NCBI GenBank assembly: GCA_964357615.1 | Contig: CAYHMC010000006.1 | Span: 7,144 to 71,143 of the forward strand | Reading direction: 5' to 3' | DNA length: 64,000 bases | DNA from: an uncultured Candidatus Saccharibacteria bacterium | Lineage (GTDB): Bacteria; Patescibacteriota; Minisyncoccia; UBA6257; JACOXY01 | In this document: piece after piece, positions 2,672 through 48,663 of the stretch | Position numbering within the stretch: the stretch's first letter is position 1 | Layout of the letters: the number at the start of each line of letters is the position of its first letter | Program-made: the position numbers and the translations under genes | Notes under the pieces: model-generated | Told to the model about the DNA's origin: nothing | Database searches by the model: none | What the model saw: only the letters and a program-made list of their open reading frames with translations

Positions 2672-3637
2672 CTATAAACCTATACCAACTTTTAATTTAC
2701 CGTCCCCGCTTACACCAGAAGAACTATTTCCGGAATTAATCTTGGTGCTTGATTCAACTTTAATTGAAGCACCTGAGGATGTTCCATCGCCTGAGTTTGT
2801 AGTTGTTCCACCTCCGGAACCAACACCAACTCCTCCTAAATTAATATCTAGGTTAATTTTTGCTCCTCCAGTCACAAGAAGTTTTGCTTCTTGTGCGATT
2901 CGCATCGCCTCTTCAAAACTTGCAAAAGCCTTCCCATAAGAACTTGCCTCCAATTCTGCTTTTCCTCGAACTACGGCCTCTTCTGCAACCCTAATTCTCG
3001 TTTCTGCTTTAGCACTAGCATTAACATTGCTTGCAGATTTTGTTTTAGCAATAAAATCTTTAACCTCGCTTATTTTATTTTCTGTAGCTTTTAGCTTTCC
3101 TTCTGCAGCAACCTTTACATCAACTCCGACTCCCGCAGAAACCTTGGCTTCTGCATCGCTTCTACTTTTAACTGTTGTGCTTAATCTTGACCGAACTTTA
3201 ATTAATAGTGACTCAACTTCTGCGCGACCACTTTCTTTTTTATCAGCAACCCCAACCAATATCTGTTCATTCGCTTTTAGAGATGCTTCAAAATTTGAAT
3301 TTATCTCGAGAATTGCAGTTGAGCTTTCACTCGAATCAATATTTTTTAATTCCTCTTCAAATGCTTTTCCGTGTTCTTCGAACCTAGATTCAATGTTAGC
3401 TCTTGTTTCTGTAGTTAACTTTCCGTCTACAGCAAGTTTTTCTGCTTCTTCAAGTCTTCTCTCGGCGAGTCCAGCACTTAACCTTGCTTTAGCTTCGCTT
3501 CCAAAAGCAACAAAGCCTTGGACCTCTTCATTCAAATTAACTTTAACTGAATACAAAACATCTCCAGGTAAAGAATTTTGCGCGACATATGAAGTACCAC
3601 CGCCAATTAATAATGCTATGGCTAATATAATTGTCAT
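2672..3637 (-). CDS. secreted coiled-coil protein, DUF5667-like (LPGDxLYxxK N-terminal motif), Gly/Ser-rich C-terminus
   Basis: 321-aa ORF with an N-terminal TM/signal segment, a PGDVLYSVK motif, long charged helical repeats and a GS-rich tail. The DUF5667 assignment is from memory and unverified. Confidence 0.45.
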   Translation of the reverse strand: MTIILAIALLIGGGTSYVAQNSLPGDVLYSVKVNLNEEVQGFVAFGSEAKARLSAGLAERRLEEAEKLAVDGKLTTETRANIESRFEEHGKAFEEELKNIDSSESSTAILEINSNFEASLKANEQILVGVADKKESGRAEVESLLIKVRSRLSTTVKSRSDAEAKVSAGVGVDVKVAAEGKLKATENKISEVKDFIAKTKSASNVNASAKAETRIRVAEEAVVRGKAELEASSYGKAFASFEEAMRIAQEAKLLVTGGAKINLDINLGGVGVGSGGGTTTNSGDGTSSGASIKVESSTKINSGNSSSGVSGDGKLKVGIGL

Positions 3638-9889: not shown

Positions 9890-10834
9890 CTATTTTTCTA
9901 AAAGTTTTAATTTAATCTTATAAGCATTGCCGTGATGCAACATTCCCAAGTAAGAATTAGCTGCTTGAATATTTTCATTTCCTTTCATTCTTTTAAACAT
10001 TCTTCTTTTAGTAGCCGTGCGCAATACGCGATGACTAGGAAAGTGCACCCAACCTAAAAAATCAAGACCAGAAGCAAGAGTTTTCATATAAAGTTTTTGG
10101 GGATGTAATTCTAAGCCCAATCTATAATATAAAAAGTTTTTTATTGGTTCTATTTGATTTTCTAACCATTCCCTATTTTCCGACAAAATCACGAAGTCAT
10201 CTGCATAACGAATATAATAATTAGCTTTAAGCCTGTGCTTAACAAATTGGTCAAATTCATTCATATAGATATTCACAAAAAGCTGAGATGTTAAGTTGCC
10301 AAGCGGCAGACCAACTCCCGATCTAGTGAAAAAACTATCAATTATATTTTGAAGAAGCCTAAGTAAATCTTTGTCCTCAATTCTTGCGCACAAAATATCC
10401 ATCAAAACTTGGTGGTGAATATTAGCAAAGAATTTTTTTATATCACATTTTAGAATGAAGCAGGTTCGAGTATTGTTTTTACTAACTTTGTAGCCAAAAC
10501 TCTTAAACCTATCTAATGCTTTATGAGTTCCCTTATTTATTCTGCATGAATAAGAATCTGAAATAAAGGTTTTATCAAAAAATGGATATAGTTTTCTATA
10601 AATTGCGTGATGCAAAAGTCTGTCCCTAACAGAGGCTTTGTGTATATTTCTTGGTTTTGGATCAGAGATATTAAAAGCTTTATAATTTCCGTGACTGTAG
10701 GTTTTATTTAAAAGCTCCTCATACAGCAATAGAATATTGTCCATGAATTTTAAAGAAAATTCTTGAACATCTTTTCTATTATGCTTACCCTTTACAAATT
10801 CTCTCCAAGCTTCTAATATATTTTCCACTCCCAA
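9890..10834 (-). CDS. diversity-generating retroelement (DGR) reverse transcriptase
   Basis: 314 aa with RT motifs and YADD (IRYADDFVIL). Motif 4 reads LPLGNLTSQLFVNIY, the DGR-specific [I/L]GxxxSQ form. The compact size is typical of DGR RTs, and it lies next to a TR/VR pair. Confidence 0.85.
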   Translation of the reverse strand: MGVENILEAWREFVKGKHNRKDVQEFSLKFMDNILLLYEELLNKTYSHGNYKAFNISDPKPRNIHKASVRDRLLHHAIYRKLYPFFDKTFISDSYSCRINKGTHKALDRFKSFGYKVSKNNTRTCFILKCDIKKFFANIHHQVLMDILCARIEDKDLLRLLQNIIDSFFTRSGVGLPLGNLTSQLFVNIYMNEFDQFVKHRLKANYYIRYADDFVILSENREWLENQIEPIKNFLYYRLGLELHPQKLYMKTLASGLDFLGWVHFPSHRVLRTATKRRMFKRMKGNENIQAANSYLGMLHHGNAYKIKLKLLEK

Positions 10835-10873
10835 AACTTCTTCGAAATTTTAAGTAAACATAATTTTCATTAT

Positions 10874-10902
10874 AAAAAAAAAACTTTTAATCCCCCCCCC
10901 CC
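10874..10902. repeat. homopolymeric A10 and C11 tracts in the divergent RT/Avd intergenic region
   Basis: aaaaaaaaaa (10874-10883) and ccccccccccc (10892-10902), located between the RT start (10834, minus) and the Avd start (10931, plus). Confidence 0.9.
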
Positions 10903-10930
10903 ACGGAATAATATTTCAATTATTCAACAC

Positions 10931-11251
10931 TTGATACGTGCATATAAACTTTGGCACGGATTCTTGCCTCATATCCCAAAAGACGCACGCTACACTGTTG
11001 GCGCCAAAGTAGATTCTGCTTTTATTGAAACAGTTGAAGCGGTGTTCCGTGCAAGTATCACAGCTAAAGATAAAAAAATTGCCTACATCGAAGAAGCTTC
11101 GATAAAATTGGATATAGTTAAATTTTTCCTACAGATTATCTGGGAAATCAAAGCATTGGATACTAAAAAATATGCTCTTATCTCTGCAGAACTAAATGAG
11201 ATAGGCAGAATGATTGGCGGCTGGCTAAGACAAGCTATGAGCCGAAACTAA
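10931..11251 (+). CDS. Avd-like accessory variability determinant (four-helix-bundle protein, TIGR02436-like), TTG start
   Basis: 106 aa. The pattern ...IPKDARYTVGAKVDSAFIETVEAV...KIAYIEEASIKLDIVKFFLQIIWEIKAL...ISAELNEIGRMIGGWL matches the four-helix-bundle / Avd family. It is adjacent to the RT and TR. Confidence 0.65.
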   Translation: MIRAYKLWHGFLPHIPKDARYTVGAKVDSAFIETVEAVFRASITAKDKKIAYIEEASIKLDIVKFFLQIIWEIKALDTKKYALISAELNEIGRMIGGWLRQAMSRN

Positions 11252-11298
11252 CCACCAAACATTTTCTCCCTACTATTTTATAAAACATTTATTGCCAG

Positions 11299-11427
11299 TT
11301 GCCGGAAACTGCCACTCGACCGTTCGAGTTCTGATCATTGTCGAGCCAGTTCCAGTTGAGATACCAACGCTTGCCATCCTGATTGAGGTACGGGACGTTC
11401 CGGTTGCCGTTCTCGTTCACCACGATT
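11299..11427 (-). repeat. DGR template repeat (TR), about 129 bp, coding orientation on minus strand
   Basis: About 87% identical to 11768-11896. All 17 mismatches are T on the plus strand here (A on the minus strand). The minus-strand translation is Asn-rich (VVNENGNRNVPYLNQDGKRWYLNWNWLDNDQNSNGRVAVSG) with AAC codons. Confidence 0.85.
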
Positions 11428-11683
11428 GTACGAAAAATCACCCACGTCACCACCCCTTGAATTATCTTGAGGTTGTATATTATTCGGAATCTATAATTCT
11501 CTGATTTCTCGCACCAAGTAGCAAAAATGTGTAGCGTATAGATACAACTCTCTGGCAGAAAAATTTTCCGCTGCCATTCTCGTTTGTATTATCGCAGAGT
11601 TCAACCGCGTACAACCTTAGCCGTACGCGCAACGTCTACTATCTATATTTAAAATATCATAAGTTTAATAAATAAAAAAATTA

Positions 11684-11701
11684 CCCTTACTTTCGTAAGG
11701 G
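11684..11701 (-). terminator. rho-independent terminator downstream of DGR target gene (CCCTTAC-TTTC-GTAAGGG plus T-run on minus strand)
   Basis: A 7-bp perfect stem with a 4-nt loop is followed on the minus strand by TTTTTTT (A-run 11674-11680 on plus). It lies about 60 bp after the target stop. Confidence 0.6.
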
Positions 11702-11763
11702 ATTTCGGTCCAAGGGACCAAGGGACAAGAAGTCCCCAGGTCCCAAGGATCCGAATGCCAATG

Positions 11764-12378
11764 CTACTTGCCGGAAACTGCCACCCGACCGTCCGAGCGC
11801 TGACCATGGCCGAGCCAGTCCCAGTGGAGATACCAACGCTTGCCACCCTGATCGAGGTACGGGACGTCCCGGTCGCCGTTCTCGCGCACCACGACCAAGC
11901 CCGGAAAATCGATGTAGACTTTTCCGAGAAGAGCCATGAACTCGGGGAACTCGTCTTGATGGTCGACCAGCCAGACTGCTTGCTGATAACCGAGAGTTGG
12001 CAAAGAGATGATTCTTCGCTCGTATTCGACGCCACCGACCGAACCTTCGTCAGGCCGGAGAACCGTTCCGAGGGATAGCGTTACGGCTTCCGTCGGCGAG
12101 TTGTCGCGCTCGATGGATTTGATCCACGAGAACTTCGCTTGAATCTCTGCGATAGTCGGACGTGGAAGTGCGGGAATCTGAATCGCGACGTCCTCCATTT
12201 TCCGGAAGAAGCCTGCTGCAGCGATGAGCTTCGCGACGAACTCGTCGGTGAGCAACTTCAACGTATCCTCCGAAAGGTCGAGAACTGCTTCTTCTGATCG
12301 ACTGACCTTCAGTCCGCCGATGATGCGCGTTGTGATGGTCGTGAGAAACCCGAATGCCGAACCGATTTGTGACTTCAT
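11764..12378 (-). CDS. DGR target (variable) protein, 204 aa, GC-rich, VR-encoded C-terminus
   Basis: The minus-strand ORF ends 4 nt beyond the VR. Its GC content (mid-50s percent) is far above the flanking genes (about 33%). The C-terminal WYL.W.WL ligand-binding-like segment is diversified. Confidence 0.75.
   Translation of the reverse strand: MKSQIGSAFGFLTTITTRIIGGLKVSRSEEAVLDLSEDTLKLLTDEFVAKLIAAAGFFRKMEDVAIQIPALPRPTIAEIQAKFSWIKSIERDNSPTEAVTLSLGTVLRPDEGSVGGVEYERRIISLPTLGYQQAVWLVDHQDEFPEFMALLGKVYIDFPGLVVVRENGDRDVPYLDQGGKRWYLHWDWLGHGQRSDGRVAVSGK
11768..11896 (-). repeat. DGR variable repeat (VR) at 3' end of target gene
   Basis: Partner of the TR. It encodes VVRENGDRDVPYLDQGGKRWYLHWDWLGHGQRSDGRVAVSG at the target protein's C-terminus. 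The substitutions are AAC/AAT/GAT to CGC/GAC/GGT/CAC/CAT/GGC. Confidence 0.85.
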
Positions 12379-42028: not shown

Positions 42029-42556
42029 CTATTTTAAATATGTAACTAATTTTTTAGGAATACTAAAACTGCAATTTTCGCACATAAATTCTTGATCTGG
42101 ATGATAAAGCGTTACGGCCGGCGAGTTACAATTTACACAAGACTGCTCGCCACCAAACCCACACAAAGTTAATATTGCTTTTTTATCCGTATTTCCAGTT
42201 AACAAAAAATTCCAAAGTGTTTGATCAGCTTGAGACAAAAGCATCATCTGAGATACCATTTCTAAAAAGGTGTGGTCGATAAATATACGATGATCCAAAA
42301 GGGCATCTACAACTTGAAAATGTGACCTATTCCCCAAAGTTCCTTTTTTTGCCACCAATCTTATTTGAGAAAGAAGTCCAGGCTCAAGATGCGCCGAAAG
42401 TCTTGATGTAATTTTTCTAACACTTGTGGCTCTAGCGGTAACCTTGCCCACATCTTTAGTAAAAAAAGTATAGGTAGCATTAAAATCGCCCAGTGGTTCT
42501 TTTTTAAGAATAATAGCCTCGGTTACAAAATCTAACATACATAAATTATAGCACAA
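42029..42556 (-). CDS. recO: DNA repair protein RecO-like
   Basis: 175 aa. An N-terminal OB-fold-like region (EAIILKKEPLGDFNATYTFFT) and a C-terminal CxxC...CxxC zinc finger. Confidence 0.5.
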   Translation of the reverse strand: MCYNLCMLDFVTEAIILKKEPLGDFNATYTFFTKDVGKVTARATSVRKITSRLSAHLEPGLLSQIRLVAKKGTLGNRSHFQVVDALLDHRIFIDHTFLEMVSQMMLLSQADQTLWNFLLTGNTDKKAILTLCGFGGEQSCVNCNSPAVTLYHPDQEFMCENCSFSIPKKLVTYLK

Positions 42557-42606
42557 TCAAAAAAACCGAAGATATTAATATAAAAATAAACTGATATAAT
42601 AAAAAT

Positions 42607-43077
42607 ATGATAGAAATCTATGCTCATGAACATCCGAAAAGTGAAAATGAATTAAGTATTTTTCTAGCTGGTCCAAGCCCGAGAGGAAAAGAAGATTACA
42701 ACTGGAGAATTAAAGCACTAGAATACTTAAACAATAAAAAGTTTAAAGGAATGGTCTATATTCCCCTACCAAAAGACAATAATTGGTTAGAAAATTATGA
42801 CGCACAAATTGATTGGGAGCTTATGTACTTAAACAAAGCGAATGCTATAGCCTTCTGGATTCCTCGTGACCTTGTTCATCTTCCAGGATTTACGACCAAT
42901 GTTGAATTTGGAATGTTTTTAAAATCGGACAAAATTGTTTTAGGATACCCAAAAAATGCAAGAAAAATGCGCTATCTTCACTACCTAGCAAATCTCAATA
43001 ATGTTCCTGTTTTTGATACCCTAGAAGAAACATTGGATAGTTCAATTTTTTTAGCAAATAAAAAATCCGCCATTTAA
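42607..43077 (+). CDS. nucleoside 2-deoxyribosyltransferase-like (Rossmann-like) protein
   Basis: An IFLAGPSP N-terminal motif and TNVEFGMF are characteristic of the PF05014-like fold. Confidence 0.5.
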   Translation: MIEIYAHEHPKSENELSIFLAGPSPRGKEDYNWRIKALEYLNNKKFKGMVYIPLPKDNNWLENYDAQIDWELMYLNKANAIAFWIPRDLVHLPGFTTNVEFGMFLKSDKIVLGYPKNARKMRYLHYLANLNNVPVFDTLEETLDSSIFLANKKSAI

Positions 43078-43115
43078 AATAGCGGATTAACTTTGTTGTT
43101 AGGAAACCATCATTA

Positions 43116-43457
43116 TTACCATCTAGAAAAACTTACTTCAAAATCAGGAAATGCCAGCTTAATCATTCGAACAGTTTGTTCTCTATCGGGCTCTACTCCA
43201 TATTCACCACTCAAATCATATACACGAATTACTTTATTGCTTGAATTCATATTAATTCTACCACCACCAAGACACACAACGCCTACAGCAATTCCATTTA
43301 ATTCTCGTTTCAATAAAGAAAATATATCTTTGTGGTACTTACACCACACATCACCTCTTACAACTATCTTCTTGTTGTCGCCACCAATTACTTCGGCAAC
43401 TATATATTTTTGATCACAATCAGCATCTATAACTACTTCCTTTATGCCTTCGAGCAT
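43116..43457 (-). CDS. conserved hypothetical protein, 113 aa (intact paralog of the poly-G interrupted gene at 46393-46732)
   Basis: MLEGIKEVVIDADCDQKYIVAEV...VCLGGGRINMNSSNKVIRVYDLSGEYGVEPDREQT... It aligns with the 46526-46732 ORF and its frameshifted continuation. Confidence 0.55.
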   Translation of the reverse strand: MLEGIKEVVIDADCDQKYIVAEVIGGDNKKIVVRGDVWCKYHKDIFSLLKRELNGIAVGVVCLGGGRINMNSSNKVIRVYDLSGEYGVEPDREQTVRMIKLAFPDFEVSFSRW

Positions 43458-43579
43458 TACTAACTGCCCTTCTTGGAGTTAATTTTCTATTACTTTAATT
43501 TTTTTAACATAACAATTACATTTTTGTCAAATTAAATTATCGAATAAAAAACCGTTCAAAAATTGAACGGGAATCGTAA

Positions 43580-43879
43580 CTATCTATCCGCAGAAGAAAA
43601 ACTTAAACAAAGTGTTTCTGATAGAGTGTCATTGCCTCTTGTGCACCTAACCCCAATTGATCTCATGTTTTTAATATCATCACAATCTTTGGGCTCAAAG
43701 ATTACAGTGCTTGCAAAGACACATTCAGTGCATTGGCAAAAACATCTTGGCTCTTTTTTGTATTGCTTAATTTCAATTTCAAAACTTAATCTATCACCCA
43801 AAAGATGAACGCGATGACGCCCAGTTGCTCTTAATTGATTATCTATAACAGCTAATTCCTTAGTTATTAGTGTGCGCAT
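43580..43879 (-). CDS. hypothetical Cys-rich protein
   Basis: 99-aa ORF with a CFCQCTEC cluster. The competing plus-strand 81-aa ORF is judged less likely. Weak call. Confidence 0.3.
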   Translation of the reverse strand: MRTLITKELAVIDNQLRATGRHRVHLLGDRLSFEIEIKQYKKEPRCFCQCTECVFASTVIFEPKDCDDIKNMRSIGVRCTRGNDTLSETLCLSFSSADR

Positions 43880-44019
43880 TTCAAGTCCTTATTTAAAACA
43901 CAAATATCTGAATCAAAGATATCATATAGTTATTAAATTTACAAAATGAAAAATAAAAAACCCGCAAAAGGTTTTAGGATATAGCGGGTCGGCAATAATT
44001 TTGCCTATATATTTTTAAA

Positions 44020-44550
44020 CTAAATAGAAAGAGCATCGCGAAATGAGCAAAGCCCATCCCTTGAAAGCTGATGGGCCGTAACGATATCTTCGATACGCGC
44101 CTTAAGCCCAACTCTAATGTCTTCCTCGTCTCTTATTCCACACGAGAGCATAACGGCAATTTTCAATCGATTGCCACCAACAAGAATTGGCGCCAATGCC
44201 GTAATGAAAAAGGGCATGCCACTAACTTCCTTTGACATACGCTCGAAAAATGTAAGCGTCTCACCAACTATTAGCTCGCTGAAGTTTTCGCCTGCCTCTG
44301 TGTAGAGACAGGCAAGCTCGACGACTGGTCGCATTTCCAGAGCAGTTCCCTCGAAAATCGCGGTGTCGAGACAAGAAAGTACCTGCGTCTGCACCTTGAT
44401 TCGAGTTTCACTCATCTCTACAACCTTTCCACCAAAGCCAAGCTCAACCCTTGCAAGGTGAAGCATTGCTTCGTGTGAGTCGTCGAATGTTCTGGGGTTT
44501 TGTTCGAAATGCTCCCCATCCCTATCTCGATACTGCGTTACCGTAATCAT
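44020..44550 (-). CDS. hypothetical protein (GC-rich island gene)
   Basis: 176-aa ORF with GC content well above the genome background. Confidence 0.45.
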   Translation of the reverse strand: MITVTQYRDRDGEHFEQNPRTFDDSHEAMLHLARVELGFGGKVVEMSETRIKVQTQVLSCLDTAIFEGTALEMRPVVELACLYTEAGENFSELIVGETLTFFERMSKEVSGMPFFITALAPILVGGNRLKIAVMLSCGIRDEEDIRVGLKARIEDIVTAHQLSRDGLCSFRDALSI

Positions 44551-44580
44551 CGCACCCTCCTTTCTGAATCCACTCTTAAG

Positions 44581-44949
44581 TCATGACAGTTTGGTAAAAT
44601 GACCATCTTCTGATGTAACTCCCTCTGGTCCAATCTGCAATATCCAGTCATTGATTTCAATAAAAACGCTGGGTGAATTAGCCTGTTTTGTAAGCTCGTG
44701 AAATTTAAACCACAAATCAATAATCCCGTAGTGTGGAGAAGCTTGAGCAACACTCTCATAAGTATAAGGATTATCCCTGCTCCCATCACCTTCTATTGAA
44801 TAACTTTCGCTATATCGACGATTTTCATAAAGATGGTCGATACTACTTGGAGCAAGAATAGTTACTCCACCACTACTCGACTTACTTAGTGGAATAAAAA
44901 CATGGATACTCGGTACAGCTCTTCGAATCTGCGCGAAACTTGCAGTCAT
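44581..44949 (-). CDS. hypothetical protein (GC-rich island gene)
   Basis: 122-aa ORF. The upstream promoter-like TTGACAAAAATG motif is shared with the 43457 gene. Confidence 0.4.
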   Translation of the reverse strand: MTASFAQIRRAVPSIHVFIPLSKSSSGGVTILAPSSIDHLYENRRYSESYSIEGDGSRDNPYTYESVAQASPHYGIIDLWFKFHELTKQANSPSVFIEINDWILQIGPEGVTSEDGHFTKLS

Positions 44950-45158
44950 CGCTTGATTCTTTCTTGACTAAGCTTAGATATAATTTATGCTTTAAATAAA
45001 TTATCATAAAAATGCATTTTTGTCAAATTTAATATATAAATACTGCTTAAACTACTTCGCATCACAAAAAACCACTGAAATTAATAACGATAAATATATA
45101 TTGACAAACGATAAACAATAAATTAAGATAAAAGTATTATAATTTATAAAAACCAATA

Positions 45159-45641
45159 ATGAAAAAAAGTTCAATAATATTTCTTCAGCTAGTCATTGTG
45201 CTCATTGGCGTCGGAGCTGGTGCCCTCCTGCTTTGGGAACCTCAGCTCGAAGGCGTAAACGCAAACGCCACTACGCTCTATCAGATATATTTCGACGATC
45301 CTTTTTTGGCGCTTGTATACATCGGTTCGATTCCTTTTTTCTTAGCGCTCTACCAAGCATTCAAGGTATTGGGATACATTGGACAAAATAAAATATTCAC
45401 ACTAAATTCCGTTAAAGCTATGCGAACTATAAAATATTGTGCGATAGCCATCATTAGTTTTGTTGTAATAGAGGAAATTTTCATAATGTTAAACCACGGT
45501 GATGATGATGCTGCTGGTGCGATTGCTATAGGAATCCTCATAACCTTTAGTTCAATTGTAATTGCAACTGCCACAGCCATATTCGAAAAACTTTTACAAA
45601 ATGCTGTTGATTTAAAATCCGAAAATGACCTAACTGTTTAA
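45159..45641 (+). CDS. DUF2975-like membrane protein
   Basis: 160 aa with four TM segments, followed by a small XRE HTH gene (a conserved gene pair). Confidence 0.6.
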   Translation: MKKSSIIFLQLVIVLIGVGAGALLLWEPQLEGVNANATTLYQIYFDDPFLALVYIGSIPFFLALYQAFKVLGYIGQNKIFTLNSVKAMRTIKYCAIAIISFVVIEEIFIMLNHGDDDAAGAIAIGILITFSSIVIATATAIFEKLLQNAVDLKSENDLTV

Positions 45642-45645
45642 ACAT

Positions 45646-45849
45646 ATGGCAATTATCATAAACATCGACATTATGTTAGCTAAGCGAAAAATGAGCGTCA
45701 CCGAACTCGCCCTTAAAGTCGGAATTACAATGGCTAATATTTCTGTATTAAAAAACGGAAAAGCGAAGGCTATCCGATTATCAACATTAGAGGCGATTTG
45801 CAAAGCGTTAGAGTGCCAGCCCGGAGATATTTTAGAATATAAAAAATAA
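45646..45849 (+). CDS. XRE-family helix-turn-helix transcriptional regulator
   Basis: 67 aa with an LAKRKMSVTELALKVGITMANISVLKNGK HTH. Confidence 0.75.
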   Translation: MAIIINIDIMLAKRKMSVTELALKVGITMANISVLKNGKAKAIRLSTLEAICKALECQPGDILEYKK

Positions 45850-45909
45850 AAAGTATTACCTTTAAATCTCCATCGATATCAAAAAGATATTTTTATTTCA
45901 TACGCTAGC

Positions 45910-46026
45910 GGAGGAGGAAGGATTGAACGCACTCACCTTGTTCGCTTCACAAAACCCACGGTTTCGTGAACTTCCTACACGGGAAAACTAGAGTTTTCCC
46001 GACCCCTTTCCTGTTCGAATCCTTCC
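45910..46026 (-). ncRNA. tRNA-linked structured element, copy 1 (candidate novel ncRNA or mini mobile element), immediately 3' of tRNA-Ser
   Basis: Bounded by an inverted copy (46013-46026) and a direct copy (45910-45928) of the tRNA-Ser T-arm/acceptor 3' end. Internal conserved hairpins at 45950-45968 and 45981-46000. Paralogous to 46991-47135. Confidence 0.5.
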
Positions 46027-46060
46027 ATTAAAAAATAGCATAAAGCCATTTTTTAATTTG

Positions 46061-46147
46061 CGGAGGAGGAAGGATTCGAACCTTCGATACCATTTCTGGC
46101 ATACCTGATTTCGAGTCAGGCCCATTCGGCCACTCTGGCACTCCTCC
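46061..46147 (-). tRNA. tRNA-Ser (anticodon CGA), type II with long variable arm
   Basis: Reverse complement reads GGAGGAGTGCCAGAGTGGCCGAATGGGCCTGACTCGAAATCAGG...GAAGGTTCGAATCCTTCCTCCTCCG. Anticodon loop is CTCGAAA. Confidence 0.85.
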
Positions 46148-46255
46148 AAAGATTAGTTTTAGTTTATATCAAATAAAATAATAAAAAAAGCGCCAGAAAA
46201 AGCACAGCGCGTACTTAGTAATAAAAGTTCTAAATCTCAATAAAATTAAACAAAA

Positions 46256-46277
46256 GTCCGACCCTTTCGAATCGGAC
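46256..46277 (-). terminator. terminator hairpin GTCCGA-N10-TCGGAC downstream of the 46393-46732 gene
   Basis: A 6-bp GC-rich stem followed by a T-rich run on the minus strand. Confidence 0.45.
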
Positions 46278-46392
46278 GAGGTTCTGCTCCCTCTAGGCTC
46301 TCCATTCATTTTACAGATGAACGGGGACAACTAACTGATTTCCCTTGTTATTTGGGAAACTAAGAAAAGGCAGCGCTATTCATCCGCGACTG

Positions 46393-46732
46393 CTACCACC
46401 CAACCTGGAACTCGGGAAACGCCACTTGAAGCATCTTGGCAGTCTGCTCTCGGTCCGGCTCCATTCGGTAATCAGTGCTCCTATCCCAAATGCGGATTGC
46501 CTTCACCGCGGGATTAATCGCGATTCTACCCCCCCCCAATACATCGAGCTCTCAGACCTTTCGGCTGAACCTCTTCACAAAGTTTCTCGAGAATATCTCG
46601 GTGATATTCGCAATCCTTATTGGCACGGATCACTACCTTTGATGCGCCGATTCCGTCGGTGACTTCGGCGACGATGAACTTATAGCCACCAGTGGAATCG
46701 ATAACTACTTCCTGTAGGGTTTCAAGATTCAT
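46393..46732 (-). pseudogene. poly-G interrupted (candidate phase-variable) paralog of the 43116-43457 gene; currently truncated after CIGGG by a G9 tract
   Basis: The 46526-46732 ORF ends ...CIGGG-stop at a nine-G run (C9 on plus, 46539-46547). With 8 or 11 G the frame continues as RIAINPAVKAIRIWDRSTDYRMEPDREQTAKMLQVAFPEFQVGW-stop (to 46393), which aligns with the intact paralog. Confidence 0.65.
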
Positions 46733-46990
46733 CAGCCTTCTCCTTTGTTGTGGTGTTAAGTGCTAGACATAAAGCTTCTATCATTAATTATAACAAATTA
46801 TTATCTATATGTCAAGAGTAATAAAAATAACCTTATTTCAGGCCAATTTTGTATAGCTCTTATAATTAAAACTTTTGCACCCCAATTGCAATCATCAATA
46901 AGTTTTTGCTTCCAGAAATTCAATTCGAAATAACCACCAAACGAAACGAAACGAGACTAGGTTAATTAAAGCTCTTTGATTTTTCCTACG

Positions 46991-47135
46991 TGGTGCCCTC
47001 GAGAGGAATCTCACGCGCTCTTCGCCTCCGCCAGTCGGCGGATGGCGAATCGCTTTACGAAACCCACGGTTTCGTAAACTTCCTACACGGAGGGGAACTA
47101 TCCCCTCCGACCCTCCCCTAGTTCTATTCCTCTCG
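46991..47135 (-). ncRNA. tRNA-linked structured element, copy 2, immediately 3' of tRNA-Arg; 3' end mimics tRNA-Arg acceptor with encoded CCA
   Basis: Inverted copy (47121-47135) and direct copy (46991-47010, ...GATTCCTCTCGAGGGCACCA) of the tRNA-Arg 3' end. Hairpins at 47057-47075 and 47089-47108, plus an extra GC hairpin at 47023-47047. Confidence 0.5.
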
Positions 47136-47164
47136 ATGACAAAAAATATTCAACTGAAGCCATG

Positions 47165-47236
47165 TGCCCTCGAGAGGAATCGAACCTCTATTTTATCCTT
47201 AGGACGGATCTATTCTATCCATTGAATTACGAGGGC
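47165..47236 (-). tRNA. tRNA-Arg (anticodon CCT)
   Basis: Reverse complement reads GCCCTCGTAATTCAATGGATAGAAT...GATCCGTCCTAAGGATA...AGAGGTTCGATTCCTCTCGAGGGCA. Anticodon loop GTCCTAA, discriminator A. Confidence 0.8.
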
Positions 47237-47329
47237 AATGAATTCAGCTTACAATTTTATTATCAATTTATCAAATCAATTTTTGCCTAAATGTTTGCAC
47301 ATGGTTGAGTGCTGGAGTACAATGAATAA

Positions 47330-48007
47330 ATGATTGGGAATAATTTTAAAGAAAAAGCTCTGGTCTTAAGAAGTAGGGGCTATACATTTAGAGAGATCGA
47401 AAGAAAATTAAATACTTCAATCCCAAAGGGAACTCTCTCTTACTGGTGTAAAAATGTAGCATTACCAAAATTCTATAAAGAAAAAATTAATAAACTCAAT
47501 AAAGAAAATCTTACAAAAGGAAGAGGTATTGCTCACAAAAACAGACAAACTGAACAGAATGAATACCATGAGGAACTTCTTACTAAAAATAAGCACTTGC
47601 TGAAGATACTCAACAAAGATACAAAAAAGTTAATTTTAGCCATGCTTTATTTAGGAGAGGGTGCCAAATGGAAGGGCCACAGAGGACTTATGTTGGGAAG
47701 TTCAGATCCTTTGATTATTCAATTATATATAAAATTACTAGAACAGGTATATGACATCAAAAAAGAATTTATGAGGGCAAGAATTTCATATAGAGCTGAT
47801 CAAAATATAGTTAAATTAACTTATTTTTGGTCAAAAATAACGGGACTACCAAAAAAACATTTTTATAAAACTATTCCTGATCCCAGGAGTATTGGAAAAA
47901 TAACAAAGAATTCTAGCTATAAAGGGGTATGCGTTATAACTTGTGCTGGCACAAAAATTCAATTAGAATTAGAATCGATTGCAGAATTAATTTCAAGGGG
48001 CCTATAA
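47330..48007 (+). CDS. LAGLIDADG-like homing endonuclease candidate with N-terminal HTH
   Basis: 225 aa. LILAMLYLGEGAKWKG resembles the LAGLIDADG motif, preceded by an HTH-like N-terminal segment. It is free-standing between tRNA genes, and its stop overlaps the first 10 nt of tRNA-Ala(GGC). Confidence 0.4.
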   Translation: MIGNNFKEKALVLRSRGYTFREIERKLNTSIPKGTLSYWCKNVALPKFYKEKINKLNKENLTKGRGIAHKNRQTEQNEYHEELLTKNKHLLKILNKDTKKLILAMLYLGEGAKWKGHRGLMLGSSDPLIIQLYIKLLEQVYDIKKEFMRARISYRADQNIVKLTYFWSKITGLPKKHFYKTIPDPRSIGKITKNSSYKGVCVITCAGTKIQLELESIAELISRGL

Positions 48008-48071
48008 TTCAGTGGTAGAATATCTGCATGGCATGCAGAAGGCGCGAGTTCGATTCTCGCTAGGTCCACCA
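47998..48071 (+). tRNA. tRNA-Ala (anticodon GGC), CCA encoded
   Basis: GGGCCTATAATTCAGTGGTAGAATATCTGCATGGCATGCAGAAGGCGCGAGTTCGATTCTCGCTAGGTCCACCA. Acceptor stem has G3:U70. Confidence 0.85.
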
Positions 48072-48081
48072 TTTCAGATTT

Positions 48082-48663
48082 ATGTCAAAACAAAAAAATG
48101 TTCTCATAATACATGGCTGTCCCTCAAAAACAGAAAGGGCTATGAGTCCAGAAACCAGAACTTATGATAAGCATTGGATACCTTGGTTAAAAAAAGAACT
48201 TATCGCACTAGGCATAAAAACCGAAACGCCAATCATGCCAACTCCTTGGGAACCTAATTATGAAAAATTTAAAAAAGAATTTGAAAAATATTTGGTTGAA
48301 GAAAGTACAATTTTGATTGGTCATAGTTGTGGATGCTCTTTTTTAGTTCGGTGGCTTGGGGAATCTAAGAAAAAAATTGCAAAACTAATTCTTGTTGCTC
48401 CGTGGAAGATTCCTGATAAAAATGACGAATTTAGACAGGCATTTTACGATTTTAAAGTTGATGGTAGTATTAAATCAAGAGTAGATAAAATCTTAATGTT
48501 TACCTCGTATAACGAAGCAAGCGCTGGAAAAGAAAGCTTGAAAATTTTCCATAAAGCGCTGGGTGGAGAAATTATTGAATTGGAAAAACATGGTCATTTC
48601 ACATGCAAAGACATGGGAACAGAAAAATTTCCTGAATTATTAAATATTGTAGCATCCAAATAA
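48082..48663 (+). CDS. alpha/beta hydrolase (YdeN/RBBP9-like serine hydrolase)
   Basis: 193 aa with a GHSCG nucleophile elbow. Confidence 0.6.
   Translation: MSKQKNVLIIHGCPSKTERAMSPETRTYDKHWIPWLKKELIALGIKTETPIMPTPWEPNYEKFKKEFEKYLVEESTILIGHSCGCSFLVRWLGESKKKIAKLILVAPWKIPDKNDEFRQAFYDFKVDGSIKSRVDKILMFTSYNEASAGKESLKIFHKALGGEIIELEKHGHFTCKDMGTEKFPELLNIVASK

Follow-up and report, generated by a model that had tools for sequence, protein, structure and literature searches.

The 64,000-nucleotide stretch of DNA analysed here (the window) carries two genes of the PHPT1/Janus type, one of which is interrupted, within the codons of an invariant glycine triplet, by a run of nine Gs followed at once by a stop codon. 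This poly-G interruption was confirmed to be real. We read the interrupted copy as a redundant xenolog, silenced recently and in principle reversibly and only beginning to decay, rather than as a switch maintained by selection, and give this reading a probability of roughly 0.55. Under it, a complete expression cassette made of consensus promoter, Shine-Dalgarno sequence, coding sequence and terminator would encode a PHPT1/Janus-type phosphohistidine phosphatase acquired from a GC-rich lineage. Its invariant Gly-Gly-Gly would have been coded GGG GGG GGT, yielding a G8 run to which slipped-strand mispairing during replication, the presumed mechanism, would have added one G. The shifted frame meets TAG immediately, such that only a 68-residue fragment could be made; the native paralog is kept intact, and no length other than OFF was seen in the sampled population.

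The interrupted gene runs on the minus strand from 46732 to 46393, starting with an ATG at 46732 and encoding a protein that begins MNLETLQEVVID..., and it divides as follows.

46526 to 46732, minus strand: N-terminal open reading frame of 68 residues followed by TAG; matches PF05005, carries K18, R36 and H44 (the equivalent of the catalytic His) and has CIGGG at its C-terminal end

46529 to 46537, minus strand: G9 homopolymer (C9 on the plus strand), spanning the codons of the invariant Gly66-Gly67-Gly68; the in-frame length is G8

46393 to 46528, minus strand: C-terminal 44 codons and stop (RIAINPAVK...FQVGW, then stop), which need a one-base shift and hold R69 (equivalent to human R78) and half of the fold

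The context of the tract is ...TGT ATT GGG GGG GGG TAG, with TAG directly 3' of the run, in agreement with the original prediction, which had placed C9 at 46539-46547, off by 10 from its actual position, and had given the N-terminal part as 65 rather than 68 residues. Also as predicted, editing of the tract in silico to G8 or G11 yielded a single reading frame ending at 46393 (112 and 113 residues, respectively); G7, G9 and G10 each yielded a truncated product. The repaired protein aligned with the intact copy at 45% identity over 110 residues (E 2e-34), with one single-residue gap in the N-terminal half and none beyond the tract; the proposed resemblance of the downstream frame to the paralog thus held upon exact alignment. 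The 44 codons beyond the tract contain neither a stop nor an indel and retain the invariant I70, E91, R94, T97 and A104. With the downstream frame intact and homologous, the view of the interruption as a state of homopolymer length was upheld as well. Dinucleotide shuffling of the window gave an expectation of 0.13 G9 runs, and the tract was the only one of 81 homopolymer runs in the window to split a gene; two other candidates for such a split turned out to be adjacent genes or non-genic.

The profile search proposed in the original prediction assigned both copies to PF05005, the Janus/Ocnus family of PHPT1, the 14-kDa phosphohistidine phosphatase, with scores of 80 bits (repaired copy) and 83.6 bits (intact copy) for a cut-off of 23 and coverage of profile positions 2-107/108. 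Searched against the PDB, the repaired protein matched human PHPT1 over its full length (E 6e-12, about 30% identity), its EYH falling on the human EYH of the catalytic His53 region and the GGGRI motifs of both proteins coinciding. In PHPT1, His53 has been described as catalytic (PMC11277029). In an alignment of 26 sequences, K18, H44, G66-68 and I70 were invariant and R36 and R69 nearly so. An AlphaFold2 model of the repaired protein built on this alignment (pLDDT 93.6) was superimposed by Foldseek on human PHPT1 (2nmm_A) with a TM score of 0.93, an rmsd of 1.1 Å and an E value of 2.5e-12. Both copies are thus members of the Janus/Ocnus (PHPT1) family by sequence and predicted fold, and phosphohistidine phosphatase activity is predicted for them. 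In the model, the frameshift falls within the long central strand (residues 61-73), immediately ahead of the near-invariant Arg69, and the 68-residue fragment would therefore lack half of the fold. This fragment, the only product expected from the frameshifted G9 template, would be devoid of the phosphate-binding Arg and probably of function. PHPT1 has been described as eukaryotic or mammalian (PMC4389004, PMC4817053), and our literature search found no paper on bacterial PF05005 members. No NCBIfam model fitted either copy or the neighbouring unknown reading frames. A role in a defence system was discarded, PADLOC returning no match for either copy.

The second family member is the following.

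43116 to 43457, minus strand: intact paralog, 113 residues, PF05005, of native composition, with the motif coded GGT GGT GGT and no tract

As had been noted in the original prediction, the interrupted copy is richer in GC than the intact one (50.9% vs 35.4%; window, 36.2%). Its GC3 is 0.54, compared to 0.24 for the intact copy and a window mean of 0.27 (sd 0.07), the mean being taken over 48 reading frames of at least 150 residues. It is 68% identical to foreign GC-rich copies versus 45% to the resident paralog, and its closest relatives are metagenomic proteins (59-68% identity). In a neighbour-joining tree, it was placed within the GC-rich clade, and the intact paralog on a deep branch of its own, so that a recent duplication does not account for the two copies. 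GC3, identities and tree together support the earlier guess of a xenolog, which most probably entered the genome by horizontal transfer from a lineage of the family rich in GC, and the presence of the intact native paralog makes the acquired copy dispensable or redundant. Relatives of the interrupted copy for which DNA was available consist of genes of 53-61% GC in flanks of 39-45% GC. The genomic contexts of five of them (L007, L009, L016, L027 and L031), with genes of 55-61% GC in genomes of 39-43% GC, differ, and each has a near-consensus promoter and an AAGGAG of its own. The occurrence of a GC-rich gene with its own promoter in several low-GC CPR genomes suggests horizontal spread, that is, a small GC-rich cassette spreading among CPR bacteria. 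The viral contig collection contained no relatives of this cassette and PHROGs gave no match for either copy, on which grounds a phage origin was rejected. Matches to the family in the genome collection came from Yanofskybacteria and Saccharibacteria MAGs, and the window itself matched Hainich groundwater contigs.

Adjoining the intact paralog, the region 43580-44949 holds three reading frames (99, 176 and 122 residues) for which no Pfam, NCBIfam, PHROGs or PADLOC match was found. The 176-residue frame (44020 to 44550) is compositionally foreign (48% GC, GC3 0.47), and the same gene order as in this region was observed in contig L001.

The signals of the interrupted gene and its immediate neighbours are the following.

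46787 to 46815, minus strand: sigma-70-type promoter, TTGACA-17 nt-TATAAT, with TG before the -10 box

46740 to 46745, minus strand: Shine-Dalgarno sequence AAGGAG, 7 nt before the ATG

46256 to 46277, minus strand: intrinsic terminator hairpin with T run, downstream of the gene

46250 to 46355, minus strand: conserved, hairpin-rich 3' element of ~100 nt, ending in the terminator

46060 to 46147, minus strand: tRNA-Ser(cga), downstream neighbour

47164 to 47236, minus strand: tRNA-Arg(cct), upstream neighbour

The promoter is the only 12/12 consensus match in 42500-48500. A near-consensus promoter occupies the same place in all subclade relatives aligned, and near-consensus TTGACA-17-TATAAT is found in six of the seven tract-bearing cassettes, that of the window included; in L009, the -35 and -10 boxes are each one base off. 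AAGGAG is unchanged across the six-cassette alignment and present in all seven tract-bearing cassettes. The 3' element is ~85% identical to the sequence downstream of the L007/L008 ortholog (L007, 10385-10500), the coding sequences being only 67% identical, and two compensatory base pairs distinguish the two versions; the element is absent downstream of the L009, L016 and L027 copies. Only four tRNAs passed the Rfam gathering score; at E<=1, the other matches in 45850-47300 merely overlapped two tRNA genes, far below their gathering scores, and neither the 3' element nor the inserts described next had an Rfam match. The location of the interrupted copy between two tRNA genes, also part of the original prediction, was confirmed. 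GC-rich and hairpin-rich inserts of ~135-155 nt follow both of these tRNA genes (45908-46076 and 46993-47181), each delimited by a direct repeat that copies 17-18 nt of the tRNA 3' end exactly, with CCA after the Arg copy, and have in common a 41-nt stretch that is 93% identical (45942-45982 and 47050-47090). By these features, they look like small integrated elements targeting tRNA 3' ends.

ATT G9 TAG was recovered from three further, independently assembled samples of Hainich well H41, in contigs of the same population that are 99.7-99.9% identical to the window (L004, ERZ1292624; L005, ERZ1292633; L006, ERZ1292625), and the identical 68-residue product was called in all three assemblies. 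The four consensus sequences from this one well thus all have G9, the supporting contigs being at coverage 1-4. The paralog locus of this strain is also present in Logan run ERR3858121. Scattered single-base differences typical of such coverage separate the H41 contigs, in which the tract length never differs; these differences are single transversions, likely errors, and are uninformative on selection. No intact-frame (ON) allele was found at >=90% identity among 5.8 billion protein clusters.

The tract was then compared across seven tract-bearing lineages, the window included, which represent relatives at 59-68% identity and not strains of one species.

Window (P0004): ATT GGG GGG GGG TAG; G9, out of frame (needs G8)

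L007/L008 (P0002): ATC GGG GGG GGG TAC; G9, in frame

L009/L010 (P0001): ATC GGG GGG GGG CGT; G9, in frame

L015/L016 (P0007): ACG GGG GGG GGT CGT; G9 offset by one, in frame

L030 (P0029): ATT GGG GGG GGT CGG; G8, in frame

L031 (P0005): ACT GGG GGG GGT CGG; G8, in frame

L027 (no protein): ATA GGGGGGG CGT; G7, out of frame

The in-frame tracts that the original prediction had proposed to look for in related genomes are thus present in L007, L009, L016, L030 and L031. Of the seven lineages, five keep the frame, with G8 or G9, and the other two have lost it by different changes (+1 in the window, -2 in L027), which marks the run as a recurrent slippage hot spot; since the same run occurs both in and out of frame in related genomes, the change is reversible in principle. 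In L027, a 32-kb JGI contig, G9 restores a 116-residue protein with GGGRIEI, and G6 would delete an invariant Gly. No frameshift at the motif codons was found in copies without the run. The tract is broken or absent in clade members interspersed with the bearers, namely L032 and L017 (both GGG GGA GGG), L033 and L023. L033 (P0031), the nearest in the tree among those whose DNA was obtained, reads GGA GGA GGT AGA ATC; P0006 (64% identity), one of the two nearest relatives in the tree, was left out of this DNA comparison. From GGT AGA ATC in L033 and ATT GGG GGG GGT in L030, we infer that the ancestor of the window gene read GGG GGG GGT AGA ATC (G8) and that the lesion is one extra G, the direction of change probably being from G8 to G9. 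Insertion of a T after an ancestral in-frame G9 was considered in light of the in-frame G9 of L007 and L009 and is less likely given L033 and L030.

Three other family loci deserve mention. L020 has an in-frame G9 (3043-3051) at a different Gly-Gly-Gly stretch (LGGGYKF, gene nt 43-51), its catalytic motif being coded GGG GGT GGC. The L024 gene (568-855; P0062, 95 residues) has a different lesion, homology ending after residue 82 with unrelated sequence beyond, and the gene has evidently been lost in some lineages. In L012, a Yanofskybacteria MAG, a C9 run (3412-3420) lies in a GC-rich stretch without long reading frames ~600 nt downstream of a family member, and may be inside a structured RNA.

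The original prediction had set the interruption apart from decay, and this was not supported. Gly89, invariant in 27 relatives and a Gly in human PHPT1 as well, is an Arg in the interrupted copy; four of its five departures from columns conserved at >=85% are located downstream of the shift; and its intact paralog is in place. The ratio of C-terminal to N-terminal conservation is the third lowest of 28 in this copy. Small as these numbers are, they point to relaxed constraint on the part that would no longer be translated. The possible signs of a pseudogene are one frameshift, G89R and a low C/N ratio, with no second lesion and with intact expression signals. Silencing would be recent, judging from the 12/12 promoter, the intact Shine-Dalgarno sequence and terminator, and the 44 codons free of stops and indels. 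Several observations weigh against a recent null allele: the enrichment of GGG at the motif, described below, could mean that the tract is selected; such perfect expression signals are unusual for a dead gene; the consensus of contigs at coverage 1-4 could hide a minority ON subpopulation; and G89R may predate the frameshift.

That the gene is instead an evolved contingency locus, in which a selected G tract undergoes frequent and reversible slipped-strand ON/OFF changes and of which the sampled population happens to be in the OFF phase, is unlikely in our opinion, though by no means far-fetched. Such a locus would generate subpopulations with and without a second phosphohistidine phosphatase. 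The intragenic G9 lies above the usual bioinformatic cut-off for translational phase variation, a poly-G/C of at least 7 inside a reading frame (PMC6321876). Natural populations differ in the state of this tract, ON (G8, G9) in some and OFF (G7, G9) in others, with two of the seven tract-bearing lineages OFF and motif frameshifts confined to lineages with a tract. Furthermore, GGG is used at 14 of 24 motif codons versus 10 of 64 other Gly codons in the GC-rich clade (Fisher P 2.5e-4, one gene per lineage, tract or not, in a statistic that ignores shared ancestry), despite the preference of these genes for GGC at their other Gly codons; no GGG bias at the motif codons was found in low-GC family members. 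L016 even holds nine Gs by way of an ACG codon before GGG GGG GGT. Among deep lineages, four-fold sites are 42-63% identical, and of the 27 comparable four-fold columns the five unchanged in all five genes include two motif codons. From these codon patterns, selection may thus be retaining the tract, in the manner of contingency loci. The intact promoter, Shine-Dalgarno sequence, terminator and downstream frame fit a switch too, as does C11, another long G/C run of the window, which occupies a regulatory position.

On the other side, the tract has the same length in all four assemblies, no ON allele emerged from the protein clusters, the tract is missing from the interspersed L032, L033, L017 and L023, and Gly89, otherwise invariant, has become Arg. 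Rather than a surface or restriction-modification function, the gene encodes a cytosolic enzyme with a paralog as backup, and our literature search found no simple-sequence-repeat phase variation or homopolymer link in CPR/Patescibacteria. Of the ON/OFF switching put forward in the original prediction, the part that stands is the occurrence in relatives of G7, G8 and G9, in and out of frame; the part that does not is switching in the sampled population, with a G9 consensus in four of four assemblies and no ON allele.

Apart from the G9 tract, the window has a single long G/C run, this C11 (10892-10902), which adjoins an A10 run (region 10874-10902). The reverse transcriptase and Avd genes of a diversity-generating retroelement (DGR) found at 9890-12378 diverge from the intergenic region that contains it; C11 is 29 nt before the Avd start and is possibly a length-variable promoter or 5'-UTR tract. 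The retroelement comprises:

9890 to 10834, minus strand: reverse transcriptase (Pfam RVT_1)

10931 to 11251, plus strand: bAvd-like protein

11293 to 11425 and 11762 to 11894: template/variable repeat pair of 133 nt, assigned to the 3' end of the target reading frame

11764 to 12378: GC-rich target reading frame

Checked by eye, each mismatch between the two repeats fell at an adenine of the 11293-11425 copy.

Production of the full-length protein from the G9 gene by recoding, either through +1 ribosomal frameshifting or through RNA polymerase slippage yielding G8 transcripts, appears improbable. The ribosomal version would have a P-site tRNA-Gly slip on GGG GGG GGG UAG A while the stop codon occupies the A site and the G run serves as a Shine-Dalgarno-like stimulator, as in prfB. 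A +1 shift anywhere in the run would indeed yield exactly CIGGGRIAI..., the 0-frame stop abuts the slippery run, and the downstream frame is open and conserved. The frameshift itself, however, is not conserved: five of the seven tract-bearing orthologs and all tract-free copies are in frame, and L027 (G7) would need a -2 shift, a +1 shift deleting an invariant Gly there. The G run is Shine-Dalgarno-like but abuts the slip codon, and the RNA flanking the tract folds no better than shuffles (z 0.0, -1.2, 0.1 and 0.7). With most orthologs in frame and no stimulatory RNA structure found, programmed recoding is therefore unlikely, although leakiness at a low level is possible. The documented cases of efficient transcriptional slippage are mainly at A/T runs, which also counts against this explanation.

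A sequencing or assembly artefact, in which the true tract is G8 and the gene intact, is very improbable. Homopolymers are error-prone and the supporting contigs are at low coverage, but three further independent assemblies agree with the window on G9, which is therefore not an assembly error; the low-coverage contigs differ by scattered substitutions, never in tract length, and no other gene is split by any of the 81 homopolymer runs of the window. It is hardly credible that an active enzyme is built from two separately made pieces, the 68-residue fragment and a 48-residue fragment re-initiated at an overlapping TTG (46539-46537). Although this TTG, 13 nt before TAG in the downstream frame, opens a reading frame (46393 to 46539, MGGGRIAI...), no Shine-Dalgarno sequence precedes it, the break would cut the central beta-strand of the model, a small single-domain fold, through its middle, and none of 95 homologs is naturally split.

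Slippage is the mechanism that underlies phase variation, and the kind of event seen here is known; the host (CPR) and the gene family are unusual. A broader proposal, that CPR/Patescibacteria toggle a horizontally circulating, eukaryote-like PHPT1-type phosphatase by slipped-strand phase variation, is speculative and on balance rather unlikely. If true, subpopulations would differ in their histidine-phosphorylation state, in the manner of a phasevarion-like regulatory switch, and the tract would be selected inside the codons of the catalytic GGG motif. It would then be the first simple-sequence-repeat phase variation described in CPR/Patescibacteria and the first on a phosphohistidine phosphatase. 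Contingency loci, known mostly from host-adapted pathogens, would extend to ultra-small groundwater bacteria, with a signalling enzyme rather than a surface structure as their target. Were the gene simply inactivated, the locus would still draw attention to an uncharacterised bacterial branch of PHPT1 with two copies in one small genome, and the ON and OFF alleles that occur naturally at this one hot spot could serve for measuring how unstable homopolymers are in these uncultured organisms.

Among known systems, human PHPT1 and Drosophila Janus-Ocnus (PF05005) share full-length homology and a matching predicted fold with the window gene, and its repaired frame has counterparts of human K21, R45, H53, GGG and R78 without exception. 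The window gene differs from human PHPT1 in being bacterial and frameshifted, in the Arg at the invariant Gly89, in an identity of about 30% and in a function that is predicted from sequence. With the +1 frameshift of prfB (RF2) it has in common a slippery codon followed by an in-frame stop and a G-rich, Shine-Dalgarno-like stretch just upstream; it departs from prfB in that the frameshift is not conserved among orthologs and has no autoregulatory logic, and the spacing of the site differs from the prfB arrangement. Its likeness to the poly-G/C phase-variable genes of Campylobacter jejuni, Neisseria and Haemophilus resides in an intragenic G run of at least 7, in the toggling between full-length frame and immediate truncation by a one-base change, and in homologs that vary in run length, in and out of frame. 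In contrast to these contingency loci, its population consensus is one length (G9), its product is a cytosolic phosphatase with an intact paralog rather than a surface or restriction-modification function, its host is a groundwater CPR-type bacterium, and its tract, which several clade members lack, overlies an invariant motif of the catalytic site. Finally, it resembles the homopolymer-frameshift pseudogenes of reduced genomes in having a single homopolymer indel in a redundant gene and a conserved residue lost downstream, and stands apart from them by its one lesion, its perfect promoter, ribosome-binding site and terminator, and a tract that is intact and in frame in most relatives.
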